Origin: a virus
Lineage: Duplodnaviria; Heunggongvirae; Uroviricota; Caudoviricetes
Virus record (IMG/VR): IMGVR_UViG_2671180366_000014
Length of the DNA: 19,464 bases
Strand: one strand, 5' to 3'
Every line of letters begins with the position of its first letter. Positions within the stretch are counted from its first letter, which is position 1. The notes below the pieces were generated by a model that did no database searches, was not told the DNA's origin, and was given only the letters and a program-made list of their open reading frames with translations. The position numbers and the translations under genes were made by a program. Below are positions 1 through 17,078 of the stretch, one piece after another.

Positions 1-825
1 CTATTTCTTCTCTGTAATTTTTACACTGTTTTCCAACTGCTTGATGCTGACCTGCGGGGTCGGCAACTCCTCAGGCATGGTTCCGCCAAGTTCCTGAATG
101 GTTTGCCTCACCTTGCGACCCACGTCAAAGTGTGTGGTGTTTGCTTGCTGTTTTGAATTCACGCCATCCCGCTTGAGTTTTTCTTCTGTTTGGGTAGCTC
201 GAAAGAGATTAGCCGCCAGTTCTGTTGAACCCATATGATCCAGGATCTTCTGATTCTTTTTCAGCCCCTTCCGCTGATGAATAGCTTTCTGATCTAATCC
301 ACCATACAGCCCCCGGTAACCATGATTCTGAAATATGGCGAAATCGATAGCTGTCGCTCCCCCAGCTTGCTGCGCTGCCTCAACCAATTGTTTGTTATGT
401 TCTTTCAATTCATTTCTCAGAAAAAGACGCTTTTCGTCTTCACGAAGTTGCCTGAAAGCTTCATCGTCAGCCAGCTCCTGCCGTCGGGTCTGGATAGCAA
501 AATAAGTTTGCCCTGCCGCAATAACCGGTTTCGCAGGGTCGCCGTTTTGTACTACCAGGTAACAGGCATAGCGGGAGAGATGAACATCTTCAAGTTCTCG
601 TTGAGCCCCTGAACCTAATACAACCATTTTGGTGGTTTCAACGAAATGGTCAGATGCAGCTTGATTGCTGGCTTCGCACGCTTGAGTCGCGCGGGCCAGT
701 ACCTTTTGAAAATTGCGCCAGTCCCGATAATCCAGTAACGGTGCCAATTCTCTAGCTGACCAAAATTCTTGCCCTTCAGTGCCATAATGCCGTATTTCTT
801 CAAAAGGTTGATGATGTTCGTTCAT
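1..825 (-). CDS. dinD: DNA damage-inducible protein D (DinD family), 274 aa
   Basis: ORF 1..837 minus; preferred start is the 5th codon (ATG at 825), which has GGAG 6 nt upstream, whereas the ATG at 837 has no RBS. N-terminus MNEHHQPFEEIRHYGTEGQEFW recognised from memory as E. coli DinD; a LexA box sits 46 bp upstream. Identity is unverified without a search. Confidence 0.75.
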   Translation of the reverse strand: MNEHHQPFEEIRHYGTEGQEFWSARELAPLLDYRDWRNFQKVLARATQACEASNQAASDHFVETTKMVVLGSGAQRELEDVHLSRYACYLVVQNGDPAKPVIAAGQTYFAIQTRRQELADDEAFRQLREDEKRLFLRNELKEHNKQLVEAAQQAGGATAIDFAIFQNHGYRGLYGGLDQKAIHQRKGLKKNQKILDHMGSTELAANLFRATQTEEKLKRDGVNSKQQANTTHFDVGRKVRQTIQELGGTMPEELPTPQVSIKQLENSVKITEKK

Positions 826-870
826 TGCCCACTCCATGTGATATCGATTGCAAAGAAAGTAAATCTGTAA

Positions 871-2304: not shown

Positions 2305-2592
2305 TTATCGTAGCTGGCAATCTTTATCGCGATAACGCCTGAAGTACCCTCTCGCTTCCTCATCCATACCAAGAGCCGAATGAGTCCGCTTAACTGCCTG
2401 TCTTAAATCTCCGAATCTGTCTGTAGTTGCTGGTGGGCGTGCCGCCTTACGGATACATTCAGAGCGTCTGTTTGCTGCATGTTCACGTTCTTTATCGCCA
2501 TCTGCCAGCATCATGACTTCTGCCCATCGTGCGGCAGCTCTCCGGTATAGCCCTTTTGACTCCAGCTCTTCAGCTTTCCTGTCCCTTATCAT
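2305..2592 (-). CDS. PerC-family-like small transcriptional activator, 95 aa (tentative)
   Basis: N-terminus MIRDRKAEELESKGLYRRAAARWAEVM resembles PerC/Pch-type regulators of enterobacterial islands, recalled from memory; small basic protein. Confidence 0.5.
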   Translation of the reverse strand: MIRDRKAEELESKGLYRRAAARWAEVMMLADGDKEREHAANRRSECIRKAARPPATTDRFGDLRQAVKRTHSALGMDEEARGYFRRYRDKDCQLR

Positions 2593-2728: not shown

Positions 2729-3208
2729 AAAAAGTGTCCGTGAACTAACACTCTGTCAAATAGTCACTACATATATTAACGGTGAAGACTAAATCCGCCA
2801 GCAAATAGCTTATATAGCACCGCTTTATGCCGCAGTTATGCTGGAACAGTAATCATTTCACAGAACCGCCTAACTACTATATGGCACCTGCTAAAAAGCA
2901 CATCAGCCTAGTCAGTTGATCGGTGCATGGATATCCTAACAATTCAACTATATAACGTGATCTCCCATGTCGATCTACTGTCATGCAATGATTAACAAAC
3001 ACATAGACACATCTGCTTGGCGCATTGATTAATCACTGATCATCCATCAGGATATGCGAACCACCGTCACCAGGTTAGGATGATTCTCAAAAGCCACCTG
3101 TATTCAATGCCTTTGATGGGTTTCATCCATAGTTATTTTCTCGTGACTGACATGGAGATTTTGATTTCAAGGTGTGCAAAAACTATCGCAGAGTACAATG
3201 GAGCTCAA

Positions 3209-4165
3209 ATGACTGTGGCACCAAAAGATCAAAGTTTGAAATCTGTAAGGGTGGGCTTTTACACAAGCTCTGAGAATATTCGCACTAGTAACAAGGGGTT
3301 AACCGCAGAGGCCTTTAAAAATCTGTATGATCGGTGTTCTAAAGACTTCAAGATGACCCACTATGCAGACTTTGGTGAAAGAGAACTTAAAATTCATTTT
3401 CTAGACATCTCACCCGAGGATGGCTCCTACTTCGGATTCATGTCTCGAAGAAGAAAAAGCGCAACACTGGCATATATTACAGATAAAGAGTGGGTGGAAG
3501 AGAAAATCCCTCTAGCCGGGGCAAAGACTCTTTCAGAACGTACATACTTTATTTATTATCCTCAGACAGACATTCTAGTATTGTCTTTAAATCATTTAGG
3601 TCCACGCCATAGTGACTTAGCCTTCCTTCTTTTCAACTCCAGTGATCGCGGAGTCCCTGTTTCTTTTGAAGCCATTTGGAAAGAAGAAAGCATCAAAGAA
3701 CTACTCGAAACTGGATCCAATCTAAGAAGCTGCGAGATTTCTGTGGCCATCCCAAGAAACTTCAATGCCGCACAGTATCAACTCGATGGAATGTTCGCGA
3801 ATCAGATGATTGAGATGATCAGAGGCACCAGTTCAAGCCACCTGACTATTTCGTTACGCGGACATTCTCCATTAAAAAGAAAAGCAAAGGGATGGCTTGA
3901 GGATGACGTTAAAAAAAGCCTTAAGGAGATGCTAGAAAAGTTCCCTGGTGGTGATGGTCGTTTAACTTTTGAGAAAGCAAATGTTGTTGCTCAGGGCGAT
4001 AAAAAGAAGAAAAGTCTTGTAGACGAAGTTCTTACGGTAAAGAAGATGGTGCCTATCCAAGCAGATGGGTATCCGACCGATACTGACGTTAAAAATGCTA
4101 TGCTACAAGCAAAGAATGACAACCTTAGGTATCTAACCCAGTACTATTTGGTTAGTCAAACGTAA
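3209..4165 (+). CDS. hypothetical soluble protein, 318 aa (ORF opens at 3080)
   Basis: ATG at 3209 has GGAG 5 nt upstream; the ATG at 3080 has a poorly spaced AGG. Region looks AT-rich relative to the rest of the window. No motif recognised. Confidence 0.6.
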   Translation: MTVAPKDQSLKSVRVGFYTSSENIRTSNKGLTAEAFKNLYDRCSKDFKMTHYADFGERELKIHFLDISPEDGSYFGFMSRRRKSATLAYITDKEWVEEKIPLAGAKTLSERTYFIYYPQTDILVLSLNHLGPRHSDLAFLLFNSSDRGVPVSFEAIWKEESIKELLETGSNLRSCEISVAIPRNFNAAQYQLDGMFANQMIEMIRGTSSSHLTISLRGHSPLKRKAKGWLEDDVKKSLKEMLEKFPGGDGRLTFEKANVVAQGDKKKKSLVDEVLTVKKMVPIQADGYPTDTDVKNAMLQAKNDNLRYLTQYYLVSQT

Positions 4166-4177
4166 CAGGAATACATT

Positions 4178-4615
4178 ATGAGTTCTCGGAAATTGTTTGC
4201 TGCCAAGTCATTGTTTGCTCTAGCTATGGCTATTGCTGGTGCCCATTTTTTACACGACCTAGATCACAATGCTGTCATTTCGGCTGCTGGTGCTCTTTCA
4301 ACTATTTCTGGAGTTCTCTTTGGTTTTGTTTTGGCATCAGTCACCATGCTAAGTAGCTTTGATAGTTCAAAGGGAATTGTAGGCGCTCTAAAAAGTAACG
4401 GAGTACTAAAAGGCATTATTGAGGGGCTTTTTGATACAGGAACTACGCTGATCACAGCCTGCCTATTAGCAATGATCTCGATGTTTGCCCCTGTTGTCAG
4501 CAATCTGCCTCTGGATTATTATGCCCTGCTACTCGCAGGGGCATATTTGATTATATCAATGATAACTTTTTTCTTTAACTGGAAATCTTTATCTAAAATA
4601 ATAAGTTACATATGA
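4178..4615 (+). CDS. small integral membrane protein, 145 aa, about 4 predicted TM helices
   Basis: AGGAA 7 nt upstream of the ATG; starts 12 bp after the stop of the upstream gene; four hydrophobic stretches of ~20 aa. Confidence 0.7.
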   Translation: MSSRKLFAAKSLFALAMAIAGAHFLHDLDHNAVISAAGALSTISGVLFGFVLASVTMLSSFDSSKGIVGALKSNGVLKGIIEGLFDTGTTLITACLLAMISMFAPVVSNLPLDYYALLLAGAYLIISMITFFFNWKSLSKIISYI

Positions 4616-5254: not shown

Positions 5255-5446
5255 TCGAAATTGGTGTTTTGCTGTGGCAGTGATATCAGAAAAATCTTCC
5301 TGTTTCACATAAAGCGGATATGCGCGTACTGTAACGACCCCATCAACGGGATCGGATTTGAAATCCTGACCCAAGCTATGTACCAAATGCCATGTCTTGG
5401 ATATATGATGATTGCCATTCTAAACAAAGCTAAAGGGAGGGTTGGT

Positions 5447-5803
5447 GTGAGGGGGCAGGCAGTTATAATTATTTTGTTGGGTTTAATTGTCGCAAAGTTA
5501 TACCCGACTTTATCGATGGTGTTTTTTGCCATTATTGGCGCAGCCATCTTTACTTATATCATTAAACATACCGCCTTGTGGTTCTATAAAATTGATATAG
5601 TTCAGAAGTTTGTACGTCCTGTGTCGATGTTATTACTAGCATTAATACCAATTGGTGTTGCTTATGTAATTGATGTTTTTTACCCTTCGGACACTGAAAG
5701 GTGGTTGATAGTTTTGTATTGTTATATTGGTGTAGCTCTCTTTTGTGGATTTCATTGGTGTTTCGAAAAGATCAATGACTCTATTTCAAAGAATAAAGAT
5801 TGA
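5447..5803 (+). CDS. small integral membrane protein, ~119 aa, about 4 TM helices (start uncertain)
   Basis: GTG at 5447 preceded by GGGAGG with 6-nt spacing; alternative ATGs at 5405/5408 lack an RBS. The upstream part of ORF 5189..5803 is not protein-like. Confidence 0.45.
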   Translation: MRGQAVIIILLGLIVAKLYPTLSMVFFAIIGAAIFTYIIKHTALWFYKIDIVQKFVRPVSMLLLALIPIGVAYVIDVFYPSDTERWLIVLYCYIGVALFCGFHWCFEKINDSISKNKD

Positions 5804-5822
5804 GGCCATCCGTGGCCATTCA

Positions 5823-7940
5823 CTAGTCATTATCTGGATCATTAGATAGCCAAGTAATGATGCCCAGTCTGGCGATGGTCCGTTTTTCCTGTTCAGGAAG
5901 AGAGTTAAAAAAACTCTTCCATTGAGGGGAGCGCCTGATACGTGAATCAACAATGTGCCCAGGCGCTTTTCCGTGTAGATTTTTTACTGCGCTCTGGAAG
6001 GCTGGCGAGGCAATTAATTTATCCGCAGCATCAGCCGCCCCTGCTCCACCAGCTAATCGAGCTTTACTCGCCAATCTTGCTCCAATATCAGCCCCAGCAA
6101 TGGCTCCAAGCGATCCAAAATGAGCGCCTACCATCGTGCCTATTTTTTGAATGTGTTTTGCTGCTAGTTCGTATGGAGCTGTTACCCGATTAAATCTGTT
6201 TACAAACTCATTCAGCTTACCAGTAGATATTTCATGCGCTTTAGCATTTTTTATTGCTCTGGCAACTTTGTATACATCATATAGTCCGCTCATTGTTTCT
6301 TTTGGCAAATGTTCAGCCAAAGTCTTTAGCTGTCCACTGTGTTGCAAGTTTTGCCACCAATCTGCAAAGCCAGATGGATTAAAGTCGGCCCCACGCTTCC
6401 CAGAGGAAAGCATATCTCTTAATGCTGTTCCTACTAGCTCCCTTCGCAATGTTCTTGATGGAGTATTTTGCATAATCTCACGAAACCCTCTCGCATCACC
6501 TTTTGCCATAGATTGAAGAGAATTCGTTACTTTATACGCTATATCCCCATTAAGTGTTTTCCCGCGAAGATTTACCATTTGCCTTTCTAAGTTTTTTCTC
6601 ATAGCTACAAGGCGTTGTGCGACTTCGAAATCTCGCAAGTATCCAGTATTGGATAAGACAGATTTTTGGTCTTCAGCTAAAGCTCCATATAGTCTTGATA
6701 GCGCTTCTTTATCAGCATCTTTGTATGGCCCCTGCTTTTTATTTAGGGCATCACCAACTAAACGCCTTTGCCTGTTTAAATTTGCATACGTTAGGATGCT
6801 ATCTGGGCCGGGGTTTATTGCTGTAAAAACTCGCTTTTCTATTGGGTCAAGATTATCCCACCCTCCTAAATCATCAGCGATTTTTTCCAGCATAGTGCTT
6901 GTGTTATTTGCTTCGACTTTTGTTCTTGGTGATAGAGCGGAATCAACACGTTTATATAACTGATCACTACGGTTTTTTAGTGCTTCCATTCTACTATTTA
7001 TCTGATAAATATATTTTTCGCTCATAGCTAACGCATCTGGCGCACCAGCAACATCATCGATTATCTTGCCAGCACTAGAGGCTAATTCGCTTATTGCTTT
7101 ATCTTCTTGAGCTTTTAACGCTGATCCTGTCCGTGACTTTAGGGCTTGCTCTACAGCTTGGTATTGCTCATTTCCTGATAAATGAGAAGGAAGAACTGAA
7201 TCAACATGAAGCCTATTTGCAGCCTCAACAATTTCTTTCTGAGGTTTTAGATCTAGCCCTTCAAGCGAAGAGGCAAGATTTGGGTTGCCTTGTGCAGATA
7301 ACTTACGAATTTTCTCTTCGGCAGGAGTAATCCCCTCAATATCTGGAATCGAAGAAACATTCTTCTTGGTTAATTTCCCAGCTATTTTATTAATTGCAGG
7401 GCCAGCAAGTTCGGCTACAGGGCCAGCCACAGCGCCAATAGCAGCGCCGGAAGCAACATCGCTATTTGTTCCATTGGCTACAATAGCCCCTTCTCCAGCA
7501 CCAAGCCCTGCGGCGGCAGCCAGTCTTGCCGCCCCTTTGGGAACCTGAGAAATAATCCCACCACCACTAACAAATGGCGCTGCTTGTCCAACGAACTCAC
7601 CAACATCTTGTGCGGTTGATGGTTTTGCCGCTAACTTCTGCTGTAGAGACTGAATTGCGGCTTGCTCTTCTGGTGTCATATCCTGAAACAGGCCAACACC
7701 TTTACCAACATCCATCAATCCACTGAGAACGCCATACATAAAACGGTCGAAACCGTTAGCATTATTAACAACATTTTCCTGTCTGGAATTTTCCTCTGGT
7801 GAAACCAAAGGTGATTGCTGCTGTTCTGGTTGGGCATCAAGCACAAAACCATCAGGAAGCTGTGAACTATCAGGAAACTGTGAGTTATCAGGTTGTTCAT
7901 CGAGCACAAAACCTTCCGGTAAGATTACATTTGCTGCCAT
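5823..7940 (-). CDS. hypothetical large protein, 705 aa, Ala/Gly-rich with glycine-zipper-like segments
   Basis: AGGAA 6 nt upstream of the ATG; start overlaps the end of the upstream gene by 16 bp. N-terminal tandem repeat LPEGFVLDEQP / LPDGFVLDAQP. Confidence 0.8.
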   Translation of the reverse strand: MAANVILPEGFVLDEQPDNSQFPDSSQLPDGFVLDAQPEQQQSPLVSPEENSRQENVVNNANGFDRFMYGVLSGLMDVGKGVGLFQDMTPEEQAAIQSLQQKLAAKPSTAQDVGEFVGQAAPFVSGGGIISQVPKGAARLAAAAGLGAGEGAIVANGTNSDVASGAAIGAVAGPVAELAGPAINKIAGKLTKKNVSSIPDIEGITPAEEKIRKLSAQGNPNLASSLEGLDLKPQKEIVEAANRLHVDSVLPSHLSGNEQYQAVEQALKSRTGSALKAQEDKAISELASSAGKIIDDVAGAPDALAMSEKYIYQINSRMEALKNRSDQLYKRVDSALSPRTKVEANNTSTMLEKIADDLGGWDNLDPIEKRVFTAINPGPDSILTYANLNRQRRLVGDALNKKQGPYKDADKEALSRLYGALAEDQKSVLSNTGYLRDFEVAQRLVAMRKNLERQMVNLRGKTLNGDIAYKVTNSLQSMAKGDARGFREIMQNTPSRTLRRELVGTALRDMLSSGKRGADFNPSGFADWWQNLQHSGQLKTLAEHLPKETMSGLYDVYKVARAIKNAKAHEISTGKLNEFVNRFNRVTAPYELAAKHIQKIGTMVGAHFGSLGAIAGADIGARLASKARLAGGAGAADAADKLIASPAFQSAVKNLHGKAPGHIVDSRIRRSPQWKSFFNSLPEQEKRTIARLGIITWLSNDPDND

Positions 7941-9268
7941 TTTCCGTTCCTGTAAATGATTTTCTGACCAGTTTTAGGGTTGGTTGCCGTTGCGCCTTCT
8001 GATATTCCTCCGGTTGCCGCTTTTGCCTGTCCAGTGCCAGCCTGTGATGTAGGCTGCCCGGAAACATCGTCAAATAGCTTCGCTTTCCTTCTTTCAAGGC
8101 TTTTTCTTAGCCCCTGAGGAATAGTTTCTCCATATGTATCGAGATACTCGTCAACCTGCTGGTTAAACTGCTGCCCCATAGCATTGGCGTTGATTTTTGC
8201 GGCGTTAACAATGTTATCCTTTGCCTCCTGCGACAGGCCGTTTCCAGCATTAAGCTGGTCTATGTATCCTTTGATTTGTCCCCATATGCCATCAGACCGC
8301 ATTACCTGAACCTGTTCGCCTTCACGAACGACTGACTGCGGGTCAAGAGATTTCATGTAGTTGAAGATAATCCCAAGTTGGGCAGCGCCAGTATTTACCT
8401 TGCTAAGGGCTTGCAGAGAGTTTGCCGCCGCTCTGACAGAGTTATAATTTTTGCCAAAATTGGTAATGTCAGAATTTAATCCCTTAATTAAGTCTGCTGA
8501 CGGCTTACCTTTTTGCCCCAGCTCCATTAGCTTCAATCCCATCTCATCTGAGTGAATTTGTGCTCGCTGAGCCCTGTCTAGTTGAGCGTTCTGGATATTT
8601 GCCCATCCTCTCGCGTTCTCCATGTCAGCCTGACGCATACTTTCATCCAGTCGCCCTTGCTCAAGTCGACGACCTTCCATTTGATCTTTGATATCGAAAT
8701 ACTTCTCATGACCGAGAGAAAACAGCGCCAGATTACCTGCGAAATGCTGGAAGCCCTGCGGGTCATTAACCTGCATTTCAGCAATAGTTTCTGGAGGGAT
8801 ACCTAAACGACGCATCTCCTGCTCATTATCTATCATGAACCTGCCAAATGCGCCCGGACCAAGCGATGAGGCTACCTGTGCTTTGAGCGCCAGATTGCCA
8901 TAATCATCCCTTTGAGCATCATCGACATAACTCATCCCTTTACGGACTTCCTCAAACTCTTCTGGGAATGCTGTAATAAGATTACGCATCTGCTCCCTGT
9001 CACCGGACGCATAAGCATCTGCATAACCTTTCTGGAATGCCGCTTTACGCTCCTGCTGTTGCTGCTGCTTATAAATATCAGCAACTCCAGCCAGACCACG
9101 AAGACCTGTCAGAGCAACGTTATTTGCACCTGAGCGAGCCAGTTCATTGTTTTCGCGGATCAGACCAAGCGTTGCGTTAATGTCGCTTGCCTTTGGCGCA
9201 TTCTCATTTTGCGTACCGATGCCAGCCAGAAAACCACCAGAATTAATACCCTGTTGCCACGTAGCCAT
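7925..9268 (-). CDS. hypothetical protein, 447 aa, Gln/Ala-rich, probably coiled-coil
   Basis: ORF 7925..9280 opens on GTG; first ATG at 9268 (MATWQQ...) lies 4 nt after the stop of the 57-aa ORF. Contains a QQQQQ tract. Confidence 0.8.
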   Translation of the reverse strand: MATWQQGINSGGFLAGIGTQNENAPKASDINATLGLIRENNELARSGANNVALTGLRGLAGVADIYKQQQQQERKAAFQKGYADAYASGDREQMRNLITAFPEEFEEVRKGMSYVDDAQRDDYGNLALKAQVASSLGPGAFGRFMIDNEQEMRRLGIPPETIAEMQVNDPQGFQHFAGNLALFSLGHEKYFDIKDQMEGRRLEQGRLDESMRQADMENARGWANIQNAQLDRAQRAQIHSDEMGLKLMELGQKGKPSADLIKGLNSDITNFGKNYNSVRAAANSLQALSKVNTGAAQLGIIFNYMKSLDPQSVVREGEQVQVMRSDGIWGQIKGYIDQLNAGNGLSQEAKDNIVNAAKINANAMGQQFNQQVDEYLDTYGETIPQGLRKSLERRKAKLFDDVSGQPTSQAGTGQAKAATGGISEGATATNPKTGQKIIYRNGKWQQM

Positions 9269-9272
9269 AAAT

Positions 9273-9446
9273 TTACCCACGTCCAGTTAAAGTGTAAGCC
9301 AGCGCCTTATCCATTAATCCCCGAGCAATTTCGTGGATCGTTGGCGCAACTCCTACCTCTGATTTTTTACGCTGCTCCTCCTGAATTTTCTTTATCGCTT
9401 CCATTTGCTTCTCACTTATCAATACTGGCTTTACTGAAATAGCCAT
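9273..9446 (-). CDS. small protein, 57 aa (MAISVKPVLISEKQMEAIKK...), not in the supplied ORF track
   Basis: Translated by hand on the minus strand: ATG at 9446 with GGGGG 4 nt upstream, stop TAA at 9273-9275 followed by ATTT-ATG of the 447-aa gene. Confidence 0.5.
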   Translation of the reverse strand: MAISVKPVLISEKQMEAIKKIQEEQRKKSEVGVAPTIHEIARGLMDKALAYTLTGRG

Positions 9447-9540
9447 AACGCCCCCTTAGAACTGTATAAAACAACAGTCATTATAGTTTCATAAAACGCA
9501 ACATTCATCATTGTGATTGCAAAATATGAAACAAACAGCA

Positions 9541-9574
9541 CAAAAAAATGCCACCGTTCAGTAGCTGGTGGCAT
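9541..9574 (-). terminator. rho-independent terminator (minus strand)
   Basis: Stem ATGCCACC / GGTGGCAT with an 11-nt loop; on the minus strand it is followed by a run of 7 T. Lies between the 152-aa gene and the 57-aa gene. Confidence 0.55.
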
Positions 9575-9600
9575 CGTTCTGTATGTCAGGTTTTGACAGT

Positions 9601-9622
9601 TTTTTTATGGACTCTAAAAACT
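9601..9622. repeat. 22-bp motif TTTTTTATGGACTCTAAAAACT (copy A)
   Basis: 20 of 22 positions identical to 15075-15096; core TTTTATGGACT also at about 16155-16165; a near copy TTTATGGAGTC at 9627-9637. Confidence 0.7.
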
Positions 9623-9626
9623 ATAT

Positions 9627-10085
9627 TTATGGAGTCGCATTACTCTTCATGGCGTGAGCTTTCCTGTTCTCTCTTTGTTCCTGGTTCCATGGATAAGTGT
9701 AATTGCCACCAGCAAAGACCATATTGATTTTGTGAGGAACCATTAAAGCGATATCAGCACTCATGTCACTGAATGAAACACAGTGCAGGCGTTCAAGCCA
9801 TTTGTATGCTGCTGCCGCTTCTCCCCACAAATTAATCCCTGCAAGTTCAACAATATCTCTGATGGAGCAGATATCAACCATCCCGTTAACGCCTGTAAAA
9901 CGGCGTTTAAAGTCGCCAAGATACTTTCTGAAAAGAGTTGCTTTCATTGGTTCAGAAAGGTCTATGTATGGGAACACAACCACATCAAGCAGCATCTCCC
10001 TTCTGTTGTTCATCGGTATTACAGATGGCAAATCGGATACTTTGCCAAATACATGATGAAAAGCCTTTGCGATTATCTTCATCAT
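9627..10085 (-). CDS. hypothetical protein, 152 aa
   Basis: ORF 9627..10088 opens on TTG; ATG at 10085 has GGGAG 4-5 nt upstream; followed by a terminator. Confidence 0.6.
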   Translation of the reverse strand: MMKIIAKAFHHVFGKVSDLPSVIPMNNRREMLLDVVVFPYIDLSEPMKATLFRKYLGDFKRRFTGVNGMVDICSIRDIVELAGINLWGEAAAAYKWLERLHCVSFSDMSADIALMVPHKINMVFAGGNYTYPWNQEQRENRKAHAMKSNATP

Positions 10086-10181
10086 CAATCTCCCACTGAA
10101 ACCAGTGATGTGGTGTTCAGATTTCGTAAAACACTCTCTAATGCCAGCCAGATGTTGTGCTCATCAATTCAGTCACATTGT

Positions 10182-10299
10182 GTTGGTTCAAAATACCGTG
10201 TTGTTGGTTCAGTGTTGGTTCAATAAAAAGAATAAAATCCTTATAAAACAATACACTTTACAAATTGAACCAACTGAACCAACTGAACCAACACCTTTT
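10182..10299. repeat. right iteron-like cluster: GTTGGTTCA at 10182, 10203, 10214 plus 3 tandem TGAACCAAC (10266-10292)
   Basis: Read directly; mirror image of the left cluster. Sits between the primase stop (10318) and the 152-aa gene start. Confidence 0.85.
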
Positions 10300-10317
10300 C
10301 TACGCACATGAAGAAGC

Positions 10318-13074
10318 TCATTCTTCAGATGAGTTATAATCTCCTGGCTGGTAATTGAGTACATAAACGTTTATTTGTCGTCCCTGAATACGTGGTGATT
10401 TTCTTTGGTATCCACGACCGCTGTTTGGTGGGGTTAGCATCCCGGCTTTTTTCAACACTTCAGCAAACTGTTTTGCGTTGAAACCACATGCGATCTCCTT
10501 TTCAAATGTGGCCGGGAATGTGTAGAAAATCATTGGGCTTTCGTCATGTTCTCCACGCTGACGGTATCCGGCTAAATCTTTGATGGGCAAATCTGCCGGG
10601 CTGTATGGAAATGGTGCAAAACGGCTAAGCCCATAGGCATTAAGAAATGCCTCCGTTTGTTCAATAATCTGCTGATGTTCTTTGTTACCTGTGCCGAACT
10701 CGCGCAACCATGCGTTATAGCTGTGCTGTATCGCATCACGGCATGTCTGAGCATCCCAGCCTGTTACAACTTCGCCTAACAGCAATGCTGCCTCCAGAAT
10801 GGCAAATCGCGCGGCTACACGGTGAACCTGCTCACCATAATCGGATGGGATCAGGCTTCTCCATCTGCTTTCGCAATCACGAACAGTTTTAATAGCCTGT
10901 TGCTGGTGGTCTGCCAGCCATTTAATCCACTCACGCCCGGCTGCGCCGTGGTGATGCTGGTAAGCGTCTTTCAGTGCGTCTGCGTGCTGTTTTCCGTTCT
11001 GGTAATCGTGAAAGCGTACTGCTTTACTCAACGGAATATTCAGCAGTCGCACCAGTTGCCCGGCTTTGGTTTTTCGCCCGGAAGTAGCGATAAATGTTTC
11101 TAAATCCATTTCTCCGGTGCTGATTGCCACTGTACGCCAGCGTTTTAGATCCCGGTTTCCACCATCTTTAGCGCCTTGCAGTTTCCCTACACCGTTAAAT
11201 AACGCATAGGCAGACTGTGAAACGCTGACAGGATCAGCGCCCTGACCAACTTCATCAAGCGGCATTAATCCGTCATTGTGGGCGGCGGCCTCATTTGCCA
11301 GCCCCAGCGCGGTTCCGTACCACGTCAGCCGCAGTAAATCAGGGTTGCCGTATAAGCTGCTCGCCACGTTTGCCGTGGTGGTCTTACCCGCGCTCGACTG
11401 CTCATAGAAATGAATGCCGAACCCGTCAGCGCCCACCAGCCCAATCAATGGCGCTGCCAGTGCTGCGCCGATCCCGGTCATCATTGAATAGTTACCAAAG
11501 GCCAGACGCGCCACGTTATCACGCCAGCTTTTCGCGCTCCCTGAGACGGTATATCCGGCTGCGGCTGAGCTTCTCCCGCTGAACAGCACAGGATTTTCAG
11601 GTGTTCCGATGATTTCCCCATCAGGCATGATGTACGCTCCGCATTGCCAGCCAGTGGCATGAGCAACACGCCACAATTCACGAGAGCCACTGCGTTGTAG
11701 CCAGTCTGCCAGTATTGCTCTGAGGCTGCTTTTGGTCGTGACATTTACCCCACCAGCTTTAAGTGTGCGCCATCCTTCACGTTCACCAATATCAGCCAGT
11801 GGAATGGCAGCGGTTGTCGGCGTTTCAGAACCAAACGACAGCCAGCGAAGAATGAGATACTGGTCTTTATCGTCTCTGCCAGTACCGATAACGCTTAACG
11901 GAGAACATAACCAGCTTTCGTTATTGATGATTTCTCCACTCTGGCTGTCAGCTCTCGGAGATACCCAATAAATACCATCCTCGCGGCTTTCTATTCTTGG
12001 TTTCAGTGGGTCGGTATCCATAACCTTAAAATCGCTTCCCTCAATGGTCTGTGGCTGCTGTTTCACGCCATTACCCTGTGGTTGGTACATTGACTTATTG
12101 AACGCTTCTGTGGCGCATTTAATGCCGTGTTTTTGGTGGTAATCATTCCAGTCTGCTTTGTGATCTGTCGGGGGTAATGCCACCCATCCAGAAACAGATA
12201 AAGCTGCTTTTTCTGCTGCTATTCTCCCCGTGTTTTGTCTTCCTTCGCTGTGGTCGTTATCCGCAGCAATGATGATTTGTGCTGAAGGAAATTTATCCCG
12301 CAGTACCTGGGCGACATATAACAGGTTCCCGGCATCAATCGCCGCCACTGTCAGCGCCTCTGGACGAATTAAATGGGCAGATAATGCCGTTGCCAGCCCT
12401 TCTGCGATTAAGATGCTCTGTGTTGTTTCTGGTGCGTTTATGGCGTGATATGCCCCTCGCTTTGCTGAACCTGTCAGGAGTCTTTTTTCACCATGTGAGG
12501 TAATAGTCTGTGCTGCTGTGACTGCGCCGGATTTATCCACCAGCGCCAGCAACAGAGATCCATCGGGCAACACGGGGAATGTAAAATCACCTACCCCTTT
12601 CGCAACCAGATAATCAGATTTGCCGTTTACAGCCTTTCTGCGCATGTCATCAAACTGACGGGAAAACGTATCCCGTCTTTGTTGTTCGTCCTTCTCTGCC
12701 CTTTTCAGGCGCTCCTGTTCGCGTCGCTGGCGCTCGGTTTCCAGTTGTTCCCGTTTCTGGCTGGTGGCTTCTGGTGTTTCCGTTGTCCGGTAATCAATAC
12801 CCAGAACATCAGCGGCAAGAAGCGCCGCCTCTGTTGTGTCGCAGTTATTTACGCGTTTAATTAAATCCAGCCCATCACCAGCGCCGCACTGATTACAGAT
12901 GAAGCTACCGCGCCCGTTGTCATCGAACCGGAATCGATCTTTGCCCCCACATGCAGGGCAGGGAGCATGACGGCGCGGAGAGTCAGGGACATTTATGTTC
13001 AGGCAGCCCAGCACATGAGGCCAGTTGTTTTCAGACGCACTGATAACCTGACGGATAAGATCAATGTTTCGCAT
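10318..13074 (-). CDS. DNA primase-helicase, 918 aa (N-terminal zinc ribbon, Toprim-like primase, C-terminal P-loop NTPase; P4 alpha-like)
   Basis: CPACGG...CNQCG zinc-ribbon motif, acidic IIIAADND Toprim-like stretch, Walker A SSAGKTT, Walker-B-like LMPLDEV; GGGGG RBS 6 nt upstream of the ATG. Confidence 0.9.
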   Translation of the reverse strand: MRNIDLIRQVISASENNWPHVLGCLNINVPDSPRRHAPCPACGGKDRFRFDDNGRGSFICNQCGAGDGLDLIKRVNNCDTTEAALLAADVLGIDYRTTETPEATSQKREQLETERQRREQERLKRAEKDEQQRRDTFSRQFDDMRRKAVNGKSDYLVAKGVGDFTFPVLPDGSLLLALVDKSGAVTAAQTITSHGEKRLLTGSAKRGAYHAINAPETTQSILIAEGLATALSAHLIRPEALTVAAIDAGNLLYVAQVLRDKFPSAQIIIAADNDHSEGRQNTGRIAAEKAALSVSGWVALPPTDHKADWNDYHQKHGIKCATEAFNKSMYQPQGNGVKQQPQTIEGSDFKVMDTDPLKPRIESREDGIYWVSPRADSQSGEIINNESWLCSPLSVIGTGRDDKDQYLILRWLSFGSETPTTAAIPLADIGEREGWRTLKAGGVNVTTKSSLRAILADWLQRSGSRELWRVAHATGWQCGAYIMPDGEIIGTPENPVLFSGRSSAAAGYTVSGSAKSWRDNVARLAFGNYSMMTGIGAALAAPLIGLVGADGFGIHFYEQSSAGKTTTANVASSLYGNPDLLRLTWYGTALGLANEAAAHNDGLMPLDEVGQGADPVSVSQSAYALFNGVGKLQGAKDGGNRDLKRWRTVAISTGEMDLETFIATSGRKTKAGQLVRLLNIPLSKAVRFHDYQNGKQHADALKDAYQHHHGAAGREWIKWLADHQQQAIKTVRDCESRWRSLIPSDYGEQVHRVAARFAILEAALLLGEVVTGWDAQTCRDAIQHSYNAWLREFGTGNKEHQQIIEQTEAFLNAYGLSRFAPFPYSPADLPIKDLAGYRQRGEHDESPMIFYTFPATFEKEIACGFNAKQFAEVLKKAGMLTPPNSGRGYQRKSPRIQGRQINVYVLNYQPGDYNSSEE

Positions 13075-13086
13075 TCTGGCCCCCGT

Positions 13087-13689
13087 TTAGTGCGTCACTG
13101 GTGCTTCTGGGATGCCGTTTTCGTTTAGTTCGGCAATAAAGCTGTTGTGAAGATCGGCAAGCACTTCTCGCCCAAACGAAGTGAGTGTTCCCTGTTCGAC
13201 ATCGAACATGTTGCTGTAAAAAATGATGGCATTCTTTGTTCCGACATCAACACCATATTTCTCGATCATTGCGCCCTCAATGTTGTTTGCCATAGCGAGG
13301 CGCTCTGCTACTGGATACAGCGGCATGGCGACGATGCCATTGGAATAAACAGAAACCACGGAATGATTGCCACTGTCATCAATAATGCTGACGGTGCCGT
13401 TTTCCTTTCTCATTTCATTGATGAATGCTGTTGCTATCAGCCAGCGCCACATAATCACGTGATGCTGTGATGTGTAATCGAAATATCCCTGGTTGCCGCC
13501 ACTGGCAATAGCGAGATGTATAAACATGCCTTCATCTGGTTTATCGTCATAATCCCCGGCATCCAGACGATTTACGGCATCAATATATGAGACGGTCTCA
13601 ACGCGTTCTGTCATGCCATCGTTGCTGCGGTACATGATGTTTACGCCGTCAGGCGTTGCTTCTGCATGGAAAGTTAAGAAATTATTCAT
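13087..13689 (-). CDS. hypothetical protein, 201 aa
   Basis: ORF 13087..13794; chosen start MNNFLTF at 13689, which overlaps the upstream stop by 8 bp; stop is 12 nt before the primase start. Confidence 0.55.
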   Translation of the reverse strand: MNNFLTFHAEATPDGVNIMYRSNDGMTERVETVSYIDAVNRLDAGDYDDKPDEGMFIHLAIASGGNQGYFDYTSQHHVIMWRWLIATAFINEMRKENGTVSIIDDSGNHSVVSVYSNGIVAMPLYPVAERLAMANNIEGAMIEKYGVDVGTKNAIIFYSNMFDVEQGTLTSFGREVLADLHNSFIAELNENGIPEAPVTH

Positions 13690-13903
13690 GTTTCGCCTCG
13701 CCTGAATGATTCTGTAACTCATATTTGCCCAACAATTCGTCTGCTTCCTGAATAGCTTCTGGTACGCCATTGAGCAGTGACATAACCGCGCCAATCATTA
13801 ACTTGTCTCTGTTGCTGGGGCTGGCCCCTTCAAGCCAGAACCCTAAAACAGTCTGAACCTGTTCGATGCGACATTGCGCTTCAATGAGCTGGATGTTGGT
13901 CAT
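13682..13903 (-). CDS. small hypothetical protein, 73 aa
   Basis: ATGA start/stop overlap with the upstream ORF (translational coupling). Confidence 0.5.
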   Translation of the reverse strand: MTNIQLIEAQCRIEQVQTVLGFWLEGASPSNRDKLMIGAVMSLLNGVPEAIQEADELLGKYELQNHSGEAKHE

Positions 13904-14163
13904 TTCGCACTCTCCACATCGATTAAACTGATATCTATCAGGGAGGTAACTTTTTGTAGCCAGCTATTGATTACTGTCGCCTGTTCCCCTCCCACCGAGG
14001 GAACAATCTCATTCATCACATGAACCAGACCTGTGCGTGCTCTGGTAAGCCGTTCAGTCGCGCAATCTGCGGGAGTGAATGTGTCTGGATATGGCTCTTC
14101 GCGCCCCAGCAATGATTCAATTTCCAGCTCACACGGATGACGATAAATTAAGTTGATATTCAT
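13900..14163 (-). CDS. small hypothetical protein, 87 aa
   Basis: ATGA start/stop overlap with the upstream ORF. Confidence 0.5.
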   Translation of the reverse strand: MNINLIYRHPCELEIESLLGREEPYPDTFTPADCATERLTRARTGLVHVMNEIVPSVGGEQATVINSWLQKVTSLIDISLIDVESAK

Positions 14164-14354
14164 TTTTCACCCCCAAGAATTACCAGCTCTGCACGGGCAT
14201 CGTTAACCAAAGATGAGCACGCTTTAATCGCATCCACGACATCAGCAGCGTCCATTTCTTCAGCCGAAAGACTGACAGCAACCAGGACAGCCGCTGCTTG
14301 CTCGATTAATTGAAGTGCGGACGTAAGGCGAGGGGTATTAATTGAGTTATTCAT
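14160..14354 (-). CDS. small hypothetical protein, ~64 aa
   Basis: ORF 14160..14411; ATG at 14354 (MNNSINT) overlaps the upstream stop at 14347 by 8 bp. Confidence 0.45.
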   Translation of the reverse strand: MNNSINTPRLTSALQLIEQAAAVLVAVSLSAEEMDAADVVDAIKACSSLVNDARAELVILGGEK

Positions 14355-15414
14355 TGGTTGCCCCCGTCTTTCCTGGCATTTCGCCACCTTCCAGCAGGAA
14401 ATGAACGTCACGAACGGCGAGATCCAATATCGCGAGCAACGCCTTCAGTTTTTCGTCTCGTGAGGGAGAGCTGCTCACCAGAATGTCATTAATCACTTCT
14501 GTCAGTGTGATGATCTGGCTTGTGCGTTCGAGGGGGTCCATATGCACATCGTAGGTTTTAATCATGTGCCACCTCCATGCGGATACGACCAACAAAAAAG
14601 CAGACGTTATCGCGCACCAGAGAACGGCGAGCATCGCGTTCAGACTCGGCAGCAATATGATGAATTTTGGCGGTAATTGTCGGGCAATCGCGGCGAACTG
14701 CGGCGATAATCCAGATAAATTGCGGTTTTTGGGTAGGGGTAGTAGCCAGCATGTGGCAGCCTCCTTCAGATAGCAGGTTACGCTACCACCGGAAACGCCA
14801 ATTTCGCTGGTGGTAGCCCAGACAGGGTTGGCGTAACCGGCTCTGAAGGATACCGGCGCTTCCGAAGAAGCCCCCGCCTGAGCCACCATTGATTGACAAA
14901 GGCGCTGGATTATACACCAACGCCCAAAAAATGGGTGAGTCAGACCTACGACATAAAAAAAGACGCTCGGCGCGTCATATGTCGCCTTCAGAATTTTCAG
15001 GACGCCAATCCCGGCACCCGTTTTATGAGGTGCCTTATAACCATAAACCGTGTTGCCGCATAACGGCAAGCTCTTTTTTATGGACTCCGAAAACTCACTA
15101 TTGGAAGAACCAGAAGCACAGTACATCGCGCTCATTTCGTTAACGTCACGCGCGTGGACGAATGTTTTTGTGGAGTCACTACACGAGCAGAACAGGTGAT
15201 CTACGACCAGAAATTCTCTGGCGCAGCCGCTGACCTTCTCAACGCTAACACCATCGACCGTAATTTCTGACATAGTTAAGGCATCCGCTCCTACCACCAG
15301 AAAATGATAAACTTTGCTTGTATCTGCTGTATTAATGCCAGACTTTGCTGTCATATTGCCGGATTTTGGCGACATACCAGCCAGTGAAAATATCTTCTTC
15401 TGGGCGGTTAGCAT
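14347..15414 (-). CDS. hypothetical protein, 355-aa open frame; gene structure ambiguous
   Basis: ATG at 15414 has GGAGG 6 nt upstream. The frame then stays open to 14347, but contains a second strongly RBS-preceded in-frame ATG at 14565 and overlaps an alternative-frame 64-aa ORF (14558..14752) that has its own GGAGG. See findings. Confidence 0.4.
15075..15096. repeat. 22-bp motif TTTTTTATGGACTCCGAAAACT (copy B)
   Basis: 20 of 22 positions identical to 9601-9622; lies inside the 355-aa open frame. Confidence 0.7.
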
Positions 15415-15590
15415 TTGTTAACCTCCACGAACTCCTTCATGAAACGTGCCAGCGGTTGCACGCATGGCGATTGATACCCGTCGCGATAAAACGTCACTCG
15501 GTTGTGAGACACGCTTTCGACAGTAACGAGTGCTCCGTGGGCATCTTTGTAGCGTTTTTGAGGTTGTGGTGTTCCTGTCGGCTTAAACAT
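15408..15590 (-). CDS. small hypothetical protein, 60 aa
   Basis: ORF 15408..15677; the ATG at 15590 (MFKPTG) lies 2 nt after the stop of the Rha-like gene; its own stop overlaps the start of the next ORF. Confidence 0.45.
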   Translation of the reverse strand: MFKPTGTPQPQKRYKDAHGALVTVESVSHNRVTFYRDGYQSPCVQPLARFMKEFVEVNKC

Positions 15591-16416
15591 GGACCGCCTC
15601 CAGACGCTTGGCGAGCCAGCGTTGCGACAGGCGGGTGAGTTCTCCTTTGCGCTGCTCATATTCCATGCCCATATCAATTAACGTGATATTGGTGCTTTCG
15701 AGATATGAGAGGTGTTCAAGCTGTTCTGCGTTCATATGGTCGCGAGGTTCGCCAGAATAGCCATTTATCCGCGCCCACTGCTTGGCAGTTAGCCCACCAA
15801 GAACGATACGAGAAATCATATTGCTCTCGTTTGTGTAGTGGTGTTGCTGCGTCGTTTTACCCATCTCGGCACGGGCCATATTCAGCGCATCGCACATTGG
15901 CTTAAAGTTGTTTGCGGCACTGATACGGGCTTTTAGCTGGCGACGATAGCGGGCGGCGATTTCAGGCACGCTACGCTGTAATTCTTCCTCGCACTGGATG
16001 AAATAACGGCGGATAGCGCGCCCCTGATCATTGCGTTCGATCATTGCCAGTTCTTTCGCCATTCCGACACTTAACAGATAGTCTTTGCCGGGTCTGCCAG
16101 AGTGCTTAATCTTGCTGTAAACCGCGCCATTCGGGCTTTTCCCCAAATTTGGGGAAATTGTTTTATGGACTGAGTAATCGTGCCCAATGGTGAAGTCATA
16201 TTCAGAGATGCGATCAGTGATCCATGTAGAGAAGTCTTTTCCCACGCCCAACGCTTTGTGTAACGCTTTTGCGCTAACAATATTGGTTTCACGCCCACCG
16301 ATATGACCAGGAATAACCGGGACAATTGCGGCAAATTCATTACCGTTAATTGTGCCCAGAGAGGCGTTCGGATGAGGGGCGGCCTCAGAAATTAATCTGC
16401 TTTTTTCGATGTTCAT
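15583..16416 (-). CDS. phage regulatory protein, Rha / antirepressor-like, 277 aa
   Basis: Segment DYLLSVGMAKELAMIERNDQGRAIRRYFIQCEEEL resembles the conserved core of Rha/Ant-type phage regulators, recalled from memory; GGAG RBS 5 nt upstream. Confidence 0.65.
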   Translation of the reverse strand: MNIEKSRLISEAAPHPNASLGTINGNEFAAIVPVIPGHIGGRETNIVSAKALHKALGVGKDFSTWITDRISEYDFTIGHDYSVHKTISPNLGKSPNGAVYSKIKHSGRPGKDYLLSVGMAKELAMIERNDQGRAIRRYFIQCEEELQRSVPEIAARYRRQLKARISAANNFKPMCDALNMARAEMGKTTQQHHYTNESNMISRIVLGGLTAKQWARINGYSGEPRDHMNAEQLEHLSYLESTNITLIDMGMEYEQRKGELTRLSQRWLAKRLEAVHV

Positions 16417-16428
16417 TTTCAGTCTCCG

Positions 16429-16860
16429 TTAGGCGGCGTTAAACGCGTTCGGGTAGAGTTTCAGAATGTCGGCAATTTCCTGCTGAGAAAGTCCGTTGTG
16501 ATCATTTATGTTCGCAAGATGGTTAACATGAGTGATCACTTTCAGAACATCACCACGGCAGGAGAAACGGTAGCGAAGGTGTGTTCCGATACCATCAGGA
16601 TTCTTTTCGTCGATACGCTCCAGAGTGATTCCAAGCTGGCGTTCTAACTCTGTTGCATAGTTACGACCAGAAGACAGACGGCAGTAGCGAAGAATGTCAT
16701 TTTCTGTCCATCCCTCTATACCAGTACGCAGCATATAGACTCTGGCACGATGCTTTTTCGGTGTGCGCTTTGGTGCTTGAAGGGATTTTGTCAGGGGCGT
16801 AACATCAGATACGCGAATATCTGAATTAGCCGCCTGTAATGGGCGGTTTTTCTTTTCCAT
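16429..16860 (-). CDS. hypothetical protein, 143 aa
   Basis: ATG overlaps the AlpA stop (ATGA); basic N-terminus. Confidence 0.6.
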   Translation of the reverse strand: MEKKNRPLQAANSDIRVSDVTPLTKSLQAPKRTPKKHRARVYMLRTGIEGWTENDILRYCRLSSGRNYATELERQLGITLERIDEKNPDGIGTHLRYRFSCRGDVLKVITHVNHLANINDHNGLSQQEIADILKLYPNAFNAA

Positions 16861-17078
16861 CAGGCCACCTTCCCGCGGCGTTCTGCCAGCCAGTTATTAA
16901 TTTCCACCGCATCAAACGCAGTCACGTTATCTGTTAGCTTCACTGGGCGTGGAAGAGTGCCATTTTTAACCCATCTATCAATAGTAGGCAGTGAAACACC
17001 TAGCAATTCCGGCATGCGAAAGCGACGGATGTATCCAGTTGTTGGGATAGCTGATGATGCTGGCTTGTGTGCTGTCAT
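16860..17078 (-). CDS. alpA: AlpA-family transcriptional regulator / excisionase-like, 72 aa
   Basis: Segment RMPELLGVSLPTIDRWVKNGTLPRPVKL is the typical AlpA/Vis-type HTH; located next to a P4-type integrase. Confidence 0.8.
   Translation of the reverse strand: MTAHKPASSAIPTTGYIRRFRMPELLGVSLPTIDRWVKNGTLPRPVKLTDNVTAFDAVEINNWLAERRGKVA

Follow-up and report, generated by a model that had tools for sequence, protein, structure and literature searches.

Homologues of the P22 ejection proteins gp20 and gp16 in an EcCIMP1-like phage satellite island: a candidate helper-exploitation operon

Phage satellites are thought to borrow the whole virion of their helper and to act mainly on capsid size, packaging specificity and helper gene expression. 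Why, then, would a satellite carry genes for ejection proteins of its own? The question is raised by a stretch of 19,464 nucleotides (nt) from the IMG/VR virus record IMGVR_UViG_2671180366_000014 (Caudoviricetes), called the window below, and by three adjacent genes at 5823-9446 on its minus strand. An earlier note on this DNA had described them as an operon for large proteins of unknown function in a satellite-like island, had guessed at virion internal or ejection proteins, and had suggested superinfection exclusion or interference with phage DNA entry as a possible role. Our analysis indicates that the window element is, as judged by gene content and sequence identity, a phage-inducible chromosomal island (PICI) like EcCIMP1 of Escherichia coli MP1, and that it carries a minimal variant of the ejection-protein (E-protein) module of P22-like phages.

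RESULTS

Organization of the operon

Three minus-strand open reading frames (ORFs) were confirmed in the window:

9273..9446, minus strand: 57-amino acid (aa) leader gene, first in the operon, with an ATG start and the ribosome-binding site AAGGGGG at 9457-9451
7925..9268, minus strand: gene for a 447-aa protein homologous to the gene 20 ejection protein of P22 (in P22, the periplasmic tube of the injection conduit)
5823..7940, minus strand: gene for a 705-aa protein homologous to the gene 16 ejection protein of P22 (in P22, the inner-membrane end of the conduit)

The tight coupling that had been described was found as claimed. The junction between the leader and gene 20 reads GGGTAAATTTATGGCT (TAA-ATTT-ATG), the stop of gene 20 and the start of gene 16 share a 16-bp overlap (AAATGGCAGCAAATGTAA) that is also found in phage Kapi1, and RefSeq annotates the same three coding sequences in identical copies of the locus. 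The length of 447 aa for gene 20 is counted from the ATG; the mechanical ORF, which starts at an upstream GTG, has 451 aa. Chance ORFs were excluded because of the lengths of the two larger frames (447 and 705 aa), their GC content of 44-48%, and a ratio of nonsynonymous to synonymous substitution rates (dN/dS) of 0.09-0.19 against the phage homologues, which indicates purifying selection.

The second and third genes encode homologues of P22 gp20 and gp16

The 447-aa protein is, on its family match, a P22 gp20-type ejection protein. PF16928 (Inj_translocase, 'DNA/protein translocase of phage P22 injectosome') matched residues 12-219 with 251.1 bits (cut-off 29.7; E = 1e-74), phrog_917 matched with E = 1e-133, and the protein was 75% identical, without gaps, to gp20 of Kapi1 over 447/447 aa. 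Kapi1 (vB_EcoP_Kapi1, a P22-like coliphage, Lederbergvirus) was the match in megablast against phages, with 90% nt identity over gene 20 and the start of gene 16; its gene order is needle, 14, 7, 20, 16, of which Kapi1_055-058 form the E block. The resemblance to Kapi1 gp20 was mosaic, with ~97% identity at residues 1-65 and 195-447 and a divergent middle part that was 66% identical to gp20 of the O26-type islands described below. The dN/dS of gp20 was 0.09-0.11 in the segments shared with the phage. Gene 20 sits, as in the phages, immediately upstream of gene 16 and overlaps it.

Judged by its alignment with Kapi1 gp16 and its position directly after gene 20, the 705-aa protein is a full-length gp16 homologue. 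It was covered over its full length by phrog_6704 (E = 1e-174), matched phrog_770 ('DNA transfer protein', E = 1e-50), and was 41% identical over 701 aa, again full length, to Kapi1 gp16 (Kapi1_058, E = 4e-147). BLASTP against P22 gp16 itself gave no significant similarity, and a Pfam scan of the protein returned no family at E <= 0.01 (the P22 gp16 family is PF26808). The protein is mosaic as well: the first 180 aa were ~93% identical to Kapi1 gp16 and the remainder ~30%, and the C-terminal 500 aa were 63% identical to the proteins in the gp16 position of Sf101 and APC_JM3.2. Over the C-terminal two-thirds, identity was at most 63% to any sequenced phage and at most 58% to any IMG/VR prophage. 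A mosaic pattern of variation is already known for the E proteins of P22-like phages (Leavitt et al., 2024; PMC10883804).

The two proteins therefore have clear homologues, contrary to the description of their function as unknown, and the guess at virion internal or ejection proteins is borne out by PF16928, phrog_770 and the match to Kapi1 gp16. The reported richness in Ala, Gly and Gln held for gp20 (A 11%, G 11%, Q 10%), whereas gp16 (A 13%, L 9%, G 9%) was rich in Ala and Gly and not in Gln. The 'glycine-zipper' stretch, from which membrane insertion or pore formation had been suggested, falls in the N-terminal 180 residues of gp16 that are ~93% identical to Kapi1. No signal peptide or transmembrane (TM) helix was found in gp20 or gp16, including a Kyte-Doolittle scan of the 705-aa protein for a classical TM helix, and phmmer searches of both against PDB sequences gave no match.

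The 57-aa leader protein is probably a regulator

The first gene had been grouped with the large proteins. Its product is not a structural protein but probably a ribbon-helix-helix (RHH; Arc/MetJ/CopG-type) DNA-binding regulator, and the gene is a conserved leader of the operon. Forty-five homologues were found in Escherichia, Salmonella, Serratia, Klebsiella, Raoultella and Erwinia, and they share the invariant core GVAPT[IL]HxIARGLxDKAL; the counterpart in EcCIMP1 was 87% aa-identical. Comparison of the RHH profile with PDB gave noise only, and Foldseek of a model of the 57-aa protein against PDB gave no match. An origin from gene 7 was considered and rejected: the protein had no similarity to Kapi1 gp7, and the junction alignment contained no gp7 3' end. 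Remnants of gp7 or gp14 were found nowhere in the window by tblastx.

The operon lies in an EcCIMP1-like island

The island is ~17 kb long and lies between yicC and yicG/dinD; strain EcPF7 carries an identical copy. On the minus strand, the order is tyrosine integrase, AlpA-type helix-turn-helix protein, AntA, DUF4222, Ash, Icd-like, primase, a 153-aa ORF, the triplet and accessory genes. The primase has the Zn-ribbon/Toprim/DUF927 architecture in a Pfam scan, and the Icd-like label comes from the RefSeq annotation of the EcPF7 copy. No coat or capsid, portal, terminase, tail or lysis genes were found in the island, the virion-related genes being 20 and 16 only. No exact repeat of at least 11 nt, as att sites would give, was present between the two island ends of locus L001 in the stretches examined.

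By these genes and by nucleotide identity, the window island is an EcCIMP1-like PICI, in agreement with the satellite-like context proposed earlier. Window positions 10124-16870 (6.7 kb) were 94-99% nt-identical to EcCIMP1, with 99.6% aa identity in the primase and 97% in AntA, and the two islands share integrase, AlpA, AntA, Ash, primase, a small ORF, P22-type E genes and accessory genes including PerC. The integrases and AlpA proteins differ (29% and 34% aa identity), and these two genes are variable in the family according to Pick et al. (2025; PMC11773190). EcCIMP1 excises only upon induction of Kapi1 and needs its own alpA and integrase (PMC11773190). Helper-dependent excision, replication and transduction are known in this family from the pair of EcCIMP1 and Kapi1 only. 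Its virion-related genes were labelled 'DNA transfer/DUF2824' by the same authors, who stated that structural genes were absent and guessed at a packaging role (PMC11773190); they did not recognise these genes as the P22 ejection-protein set.

Recurrence and exchange of the cassette

The RHH gene with its promoter was present in 503 of 5426 complete E. coli genomes. Three types of module were distinguished, namely the window-type trio (83 E. coli genomes), an O26-type module of DUF2824 (gp14), gp7, a 473-aa gp20 and a 701-aa gp16 (181 genomes), and the MP1 (EcCIMP1) type with 14, 7, a 439-aa gp20 and a 906-aa gp16 (72 genomes), the three counts being megablast matches covering at least 80% of the query and not verified island copies. 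Between the island variants, gp20 was 18-27% identical and gp16 showed no significant similarity (13-27% or none overall), whereas primase, gp7 and gp14 were 97-99% identical. Because the E alleles are so divergent on an almost constant backbone, the cassette has been exchanged, and at least three distinct full-length allelic sets stand on near-identical backbones.

The cassette of RHH gene, gp20, gp16 and membrane gene at yicG/dinD was also found joined to a DUF5906 primase-helicase and other accessory genes (L013 and L014, 14362-16713; L030, L031). Since the same cassette stands there with DUF5906 instead of the Toprim/DUF927 primase, the replication modules have been swapped as well. In the Serratia islands the three-gene architecture is the same and the alleles are others: behind the RHH gene, gp20 has 448 aa, and gp16, which carries SLT and P22_gp16 domains, has 943 aa. 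The triplet thus recurs as a unit, in 83-86 E. coli genomes with two replication modules and with other alleles in Serratia.

The region would have been a prophage remnant, as the earlier note had allowed, if its genes were identical to structural genes of a resident prophage. The genes are homologous to structural genes of P22-like phages, yet the island around them is self-contained and their slot in it is fixed, and the gp16 allele was borne by islands only among the copies inspected. This allele was present in 86 E. coli genomes, in all of them with at least 99% identity, and in two IMG/VR contigs only, both with 100% identity and both island-borne; gp16 of ~40 true P22-like prophage contigs in IMG/VR was merely 41-58% identical to that of the window. 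Four E. coli copies with at least 99% identity were inspected (L001, L013, L014 and the trio identical to that of L001), and all lay on islands. The distribution of the allele rules out a remnant of a resident prophage.

Putative control region of the operon

Two features precede the leader gene:

9550..9574, minus strand: Rho-independent terminator (GCCACC...GGTGGC + T7), found by a terminator scan and kept in the aligned E. coli sister islands
9463..9532, minus strand: putative promoter and operator of the operon, with a function predicted from a cross-genus alignment

The terminator closes the upstream replication region, and the triplet is therefore a separate transcription unit. About 90 bp upstream of the leader were conserved between genera, and the elements of the promoter region were invariant in the alignment of Escherichia, Serratia, Erwinia and Raoultella. 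They comprise a perfect -10 element, TATAAT, at 9485-9480 without a good -35; an inverted repeat, GTTTCATA / TATGAAAC, at 9532-9525 and 9493-9486, which abuts the TATAAT; and a second -10-like element at 9468-9463 (TATAcA here, TATAnA across genera), 13-17 nt downstream of the first. A sigma-70 consensus scan upstream of the operon called no promoter because the -35 is missing, and the promoter was assigned from cross-genus conservation only. The conserved region looks like a regulated promoter, whose regulator could be AlpA, a factor from the helper or the RHH leader protein. The arrangement of TATAAT with a downstream TATAnA also recalls Q-dependent late promoters and their sigma-70 pause elements, a likeness that is speculative.

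The slot behind the RHH gene in other genera

A scan of GTDB with the RHH alignment gave 15 species-level loci, which were considered together with loci from Serratia, Raoultella and Erwinia. A homologous primase (62-100% aa-identical) lay a few kb upstream of the RHH gene in 15/15 GTDB loci, and AntA and/or Ash were present in most of the loci that included the upstream flank. What follows the RHH gene differed between genera. Escherichia sp. had 14-7-20-16, whereas Leclercia, Klebsiella and Pectobacterium (L016, L017, L018 and L028; ~9200-17000) had three to four large proteins of the internal-virion or ejectosome type of podoviruses, matching phrog_418 ('internal virion protein'), phrog_1044/992 (transglycosylase-bearing), phrog_3003 and phrog_684 ('virion structural protein'). 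Four Pantoea species, Erwinia, Lonsdalea, Chimaeribacter and Serratia silvae encoded a 108-aa protein, a putative chaperone, beside a tape-measure protein (TMP; phrog_1107, up to 1200 bits). These TMPs were full-length, with 857-1188 aa, in most loci, and split or truncated in L022 and L025:

L011/L012, L020-L022, L024-L027 and L029, about 9150-12700 in each: tape-measure loci

Raoultella had a 605-aa protein with a transglycosylase/TMP-like C-terminus and TerS-like genes, and Rahnella (L023) a baseplate hub together with a TerS-like gene and two small proteins. Given the genes found behind the RHH gene across genera, the slot consistently holds virion proteins that act when the envelope is penetrated or DNA is delivered, in some cases beside a small terminase, and the type of content presumably follows the morphotype of the helper.

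The pattern across genera seems unrecognised in the searchable literature, since, according to a preprint of December 2025, the only satellites known to have TMPs are EPIPs and, as a proposed case, PLE11 (PMC12822802), and since SatelliteFinder forbids tail genes among the components of a PICI (PMC10085698). A literature search for satellites with P22-type ejection proteins returned the EcCIMP1 paper only. As a tentative generalization, which we consider possible and not probable, the loci may form a PICI-like family of Enterobacterales in which a fixed, RHH-led slot encodes the satellite's own delivery or penetration proteins, matched to the helper morphotype, and gives control over entry, for example by escape from SieA or from superinfection exclusion systems that target TMPs. 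If the pattern, which is read from homology and synteny, holds, satellite-borne genome-delivery modules across genera would be the new part.

Envelope protein genes next to gene 16

A membrane protein gene faces the end of gene 16:

5408..5803, plus strand: 131-aa four-TM protein WP_001363070.1 (RefSeq copies, TM scan), convergent with gene 16 and 19 bp from it

The two genes are separated by a short GC hairpin at 5804-5817. The 131-aa gene has a GC content of 36%, always travels with the gp20/gp16 cassette of the window, including in islands with a different replicase, and occupies the position equivalent to sieA, which in P22 follows gene 16 after 23 bp on the opposite strand. Its product showed no similarity to PHROGs, phages, PADLOC or SieA. 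Identity with SieA was rejected, there being no BLASTP match to P22 SieA, no match to phrog_7745 and no FxRYPxEAxxFNK motif, and agreement in position and orientation only.

A SieA homologue was found in the O26-type islands, where a 204-aa protein gene is convergent with gene 16 (L003:3680-4294 and L004:3680-4294). The protein was 29% identical to P22 SieA over 108 aa (E = 8e-8), contains RYPGEA and matches phrog_7745. Leavitt et al. (2024; PMC10883804) reported sieA in P22-like prophages only; a satellite-borne sieA may be so far unreported. In EcCIMP1, the gene after gp16 (L005:6632-7330) encodes a predicted lipoprotein of 232 aa with the lipobox LLAGC on the same strand as gene 16, and in the Serratia islands, a convergent gene for a single-TM protein follows gene 16.

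Kapi1 lysogens gain in immunity to superinfection from EcCIMP1, in which no known defence system was detected (PMC11773190). We infer that the envelope proteins beside gene 16 are better candidates for this immunity than gp20 and gp16, the lipoprotein being a candidate source of the EcCIMP1 phenotype and the 131-aa four-TM protein a candidate exclusion factor.

Accessory genes

The remaining features of interest lie at the accessory end of the island:

1-837, minus strand: Bro-N protein, which appears to be chromosomal dinD and would mark the island boundary
2305-2592, minus strand: PerC-family gene at the accessory end, 54% identical to the PerC-like repressor of LEE (the enterocyte effacement locus) in EcCIMP1
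3080-4615, plus strand: gene pair encoding 361 aa (phrog_7651) and 145 aa (phrog_8552), in the variable accessory region

The pair at 3080-4615 had no PADLOC, Pfam or NCBIfam match and may be an uncharacterised defence or accessory system. Sister islands hold Abi, ImmA/IrrE or RnlAB genes in this variable region. PADLOC and NCBIfam searches of the trio and the accessory genes returned no known defence system.

DISCUSSION

Proposed role of the operon

We favor, with moderate confidence, the reading that the locus is a helper-exploitation operon of an EcCIMP1-like PICI, a satellite of P22-like podoviruses (Lederbergvirus, e.g., Kapi1), and that its gp20 and gp16 are loaded into helper capsids and deliver the island DNA. 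When the helper phage goes lytic, the RHH-led operon would be switched on, and island gp20 and gp16 would be loaded into procapsids built by the helper, which would supply gp7 and gp14. After adsorption, gp20 and gp16 would be ejected and would form a trans-envelope conduit for island DNA into the next cell. Loading into helper procapsids is plausible because the N-terminal parts of island gp20 and gp16 are nearly identical to those of Kapi1. P22 virions can be assembled with E-protein sets from other phages, and these sets are functional; gp7 is interchangeable, whereas gp20 and gp16 must be matched to each other in order to work (PMC10883804). Because gp20 and gp16 must match while gp7 is interchangeable, the island would keep 20 and 16 together, and from the co-dependence seen in experiments one would predict that a module of these two genes can be retained in the absence of 7 and 14.

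The most likely selective advantage would be control of the entry step, that is, independence from the E alleles of the helper and escape from SieA-type blocks of injection. SieA blocks injection at the inner membrane, and escape mutations lie in gp16 and gp20 (PMC10883804); escape would be of advantage because these are the proteins to which such mutations map and because SieA is made by the very lysogens that a satellite most needs to enter. Better establishment after entry could be another pay-off.

Several points weigh against this reading. The role proposed for gp20 and gp16 in the islands is read from sequence. EcCIMP1 is transduced by Kapi1 very inefficiently, at about 5e3 per ml (PMC11773190), so that a dedicated delivery module has no demonstrated pay-off. 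Helper and island would produce their E proteins side by side in one cell, which leaves the island no way to keep its set for its own particles. Phages whose E alleles differ greatly are excluded by P22 SieA and by the type-B SieA, the HK620 set alone having partly escaped (PMC10883804), and with a specificity this broad, a divergent E allele is no guarantee of escape. The SieA homologue encoded by the O26-type sister islands fits the alternative that exclusion was what the block was acquired for, with the E genes merely carried in beside it. A Kapi1-like prophage was present in only 2/21 EcCIMP1 strains (PMC11773190). Finally, IS1 or IS3 lies inside the trio in several E. coli copies (H11, H17-H20, H155, H156 and H160), which makes the trio dispensable for the host.

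Alternative explanations

Island gp20 and gp16 might instead mis-pair with those of the helper in helper virions and render the particles non-infectious, a sabotage of the spread of the helper at the step of DNA injection. Satellites commonly act against their helpers, gp20 and gp16 of EcCIMP1 share just 18% and 13% identity with their counterparts in the helper Kapi1, and single swaps of gp16 or gp20 between P22 and Sf6 gave normal numbers of particles that contained the foreign protein and were non-infectious (PMC10883804). We nevertheless consider interference unlikely. The titre of Kapi1 after induction was not lowered by EcCIMP1 (PMC11773190), the poisoning would strike the particles of the island just as much, since one cell makes both sets, and the Kapi1-like C-terminus of gp20 and N-terminus of gp16 in the window suggest compatibility, not conflict.

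Superinfection exclusion, in which a low level of gp20 and gp16 in the uninduced cell would block an incoming P22-like conduit, had been put forward by the earlier note together with interference with entry. It would account for the immunity to Kapi1 that EcCIMP1 adds in Kapi1 lysogens with no known defence system, a system likewise missing from the searches of the window. The two proteins, however, have no signal peptide or TM helix and normally act from outside the cell; the O26 SieA homologue, the EcCIMP1 lipoprotein and the 131-aa four-TM protein are better placed for such a role; and in other genera the slot holds a TMP or baseplate hub, which is hard to see excluding a phage from inside the cell. 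This explanation is quite improbable for gp20 and gp16 themselves.

The E genes could also serve as insurance by which defective or incompatible P22-like prophages lacking functional 20 and 16 would mobilise the island. The 'insurance policy' logic of Pick et al., in which alpA_1 of EcCIMP1 can replace the Kapi1 excisionase (PMC11773190), and the function of foreign E-protein sets in P22 virions would agree with this. A prophage that has lost only its E genes and otherwise kept its late operon should be rare, however, and the rapid swapping of gp20/gp16 alleles on near-identical backbones is left unexplained, which leaves little probability for insurance.

That the genes are a passenger, a decaying fragment of a P22-like late operon acquired by illegitimate recombination, perhaps with a sieA-type gene, is very unlikely: the colinearity with phages (14-7-20-16-sieA), the insertion sequences in some copies and the GC content of 44-48%, which differs from the 51% of the backbone, would fit, but the ORFs are intact in about 80 genomes with a dN/dS of 0.1-0.2, the slot is fixed behind a regulator and promoter conserved across genera, at least three full-length allelic sets have been kept, the gp16 allele is absent from the sampled phages, and it looks like the outcome of selection that 14 and 7 were lost while precisely the two co-dependent genes were kept.

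Under the favored reading of a helper-exploitation operon, a conserved and separately regulated slot for envelope-crossing proteins, whose alleles are swapped faster than the backbone, would point to entry as a step contested among satellite, helper and host. The 14-7-20-16 block and the O26 SieA homologue provide concrete candidates for the packaging-gene and superinfection-immunity questions raised by EcCIMP1, for which E. coli MP1 and Kapi1 are at hand. Satellite finders that forbid tail or virion genes will miss or misclassify such elements, which will appear as defective P22-like prophages in the output of prophage finders.

Comparison with known systems

Like P4, the window island is an enterobacterial integrative satellite that encodes a tyrosine integrase, a regulator of the AlpA type, Ash/Icd-like proteins and a large primase-helicase with Zn-ribbon and Toprim domains, and like P4 it has a separate operon aimed at the helper virion (sid-delta-psu in P4). 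The window ORFs scanned contained no Psu, Sid or Ogr/Delta domain, and the slot after the primase is taken by RHH-20-16 instead. The helper of P4 is the myovirus P2, and P4 makes determinants of capsid size, whereas the helper type of the window would be a podovirus and the proteins encoded are virion-internal.

Capsid-forming PICIs (cf-PICIs) likewise encode part of the virion (PMC10085698), as do EPIPs and PLE11 (PMC12822802). There is no sequence relationship with the window: cf-PICIs encode capsid, portal and connector, EPIPs capsid-related proteins and a TMP, and the window ejection proteins only.

The E block of P22-like phages (14, 7, 20, 16 and sieA in P22; Kapi1_055-058) shares with the window homologous proteins, gene order, mosaic variation and a convergent membrane gene after gene 16. 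The overlap of 20 and 16 that the window has in common with Kapi1 is 1 bp in P22. The window differs from these phages in that genes 14 and 7 are absent and in that 20 and 16 stand in a ~17-kb satellite, led by an island-specific RHH gene and promoter instead of a phage late operon.

EcCIMP1 belongs to the same island family, and the differences, beside those in integrase and AlpA, lie at the insertion site, in the E module and in the gene after 16. The window island is at yicC/yicG-dinD and EcCIMP1 in tRNA-Thr at proA/yagU; EcCIMP1 carries 14-7-20-16 and the window 20 and 16 only. The gp20 proteins (439 aa in EcCIMP1) are 18% identical, and the gp16 of EcCIMP1, which has 906 aa and a transglycosylase domain, shows no significant similarity to that of the window. 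The gene that follows 16 encodes a lipoprotein in EcCIMP1 and a four-TM protein in the window.

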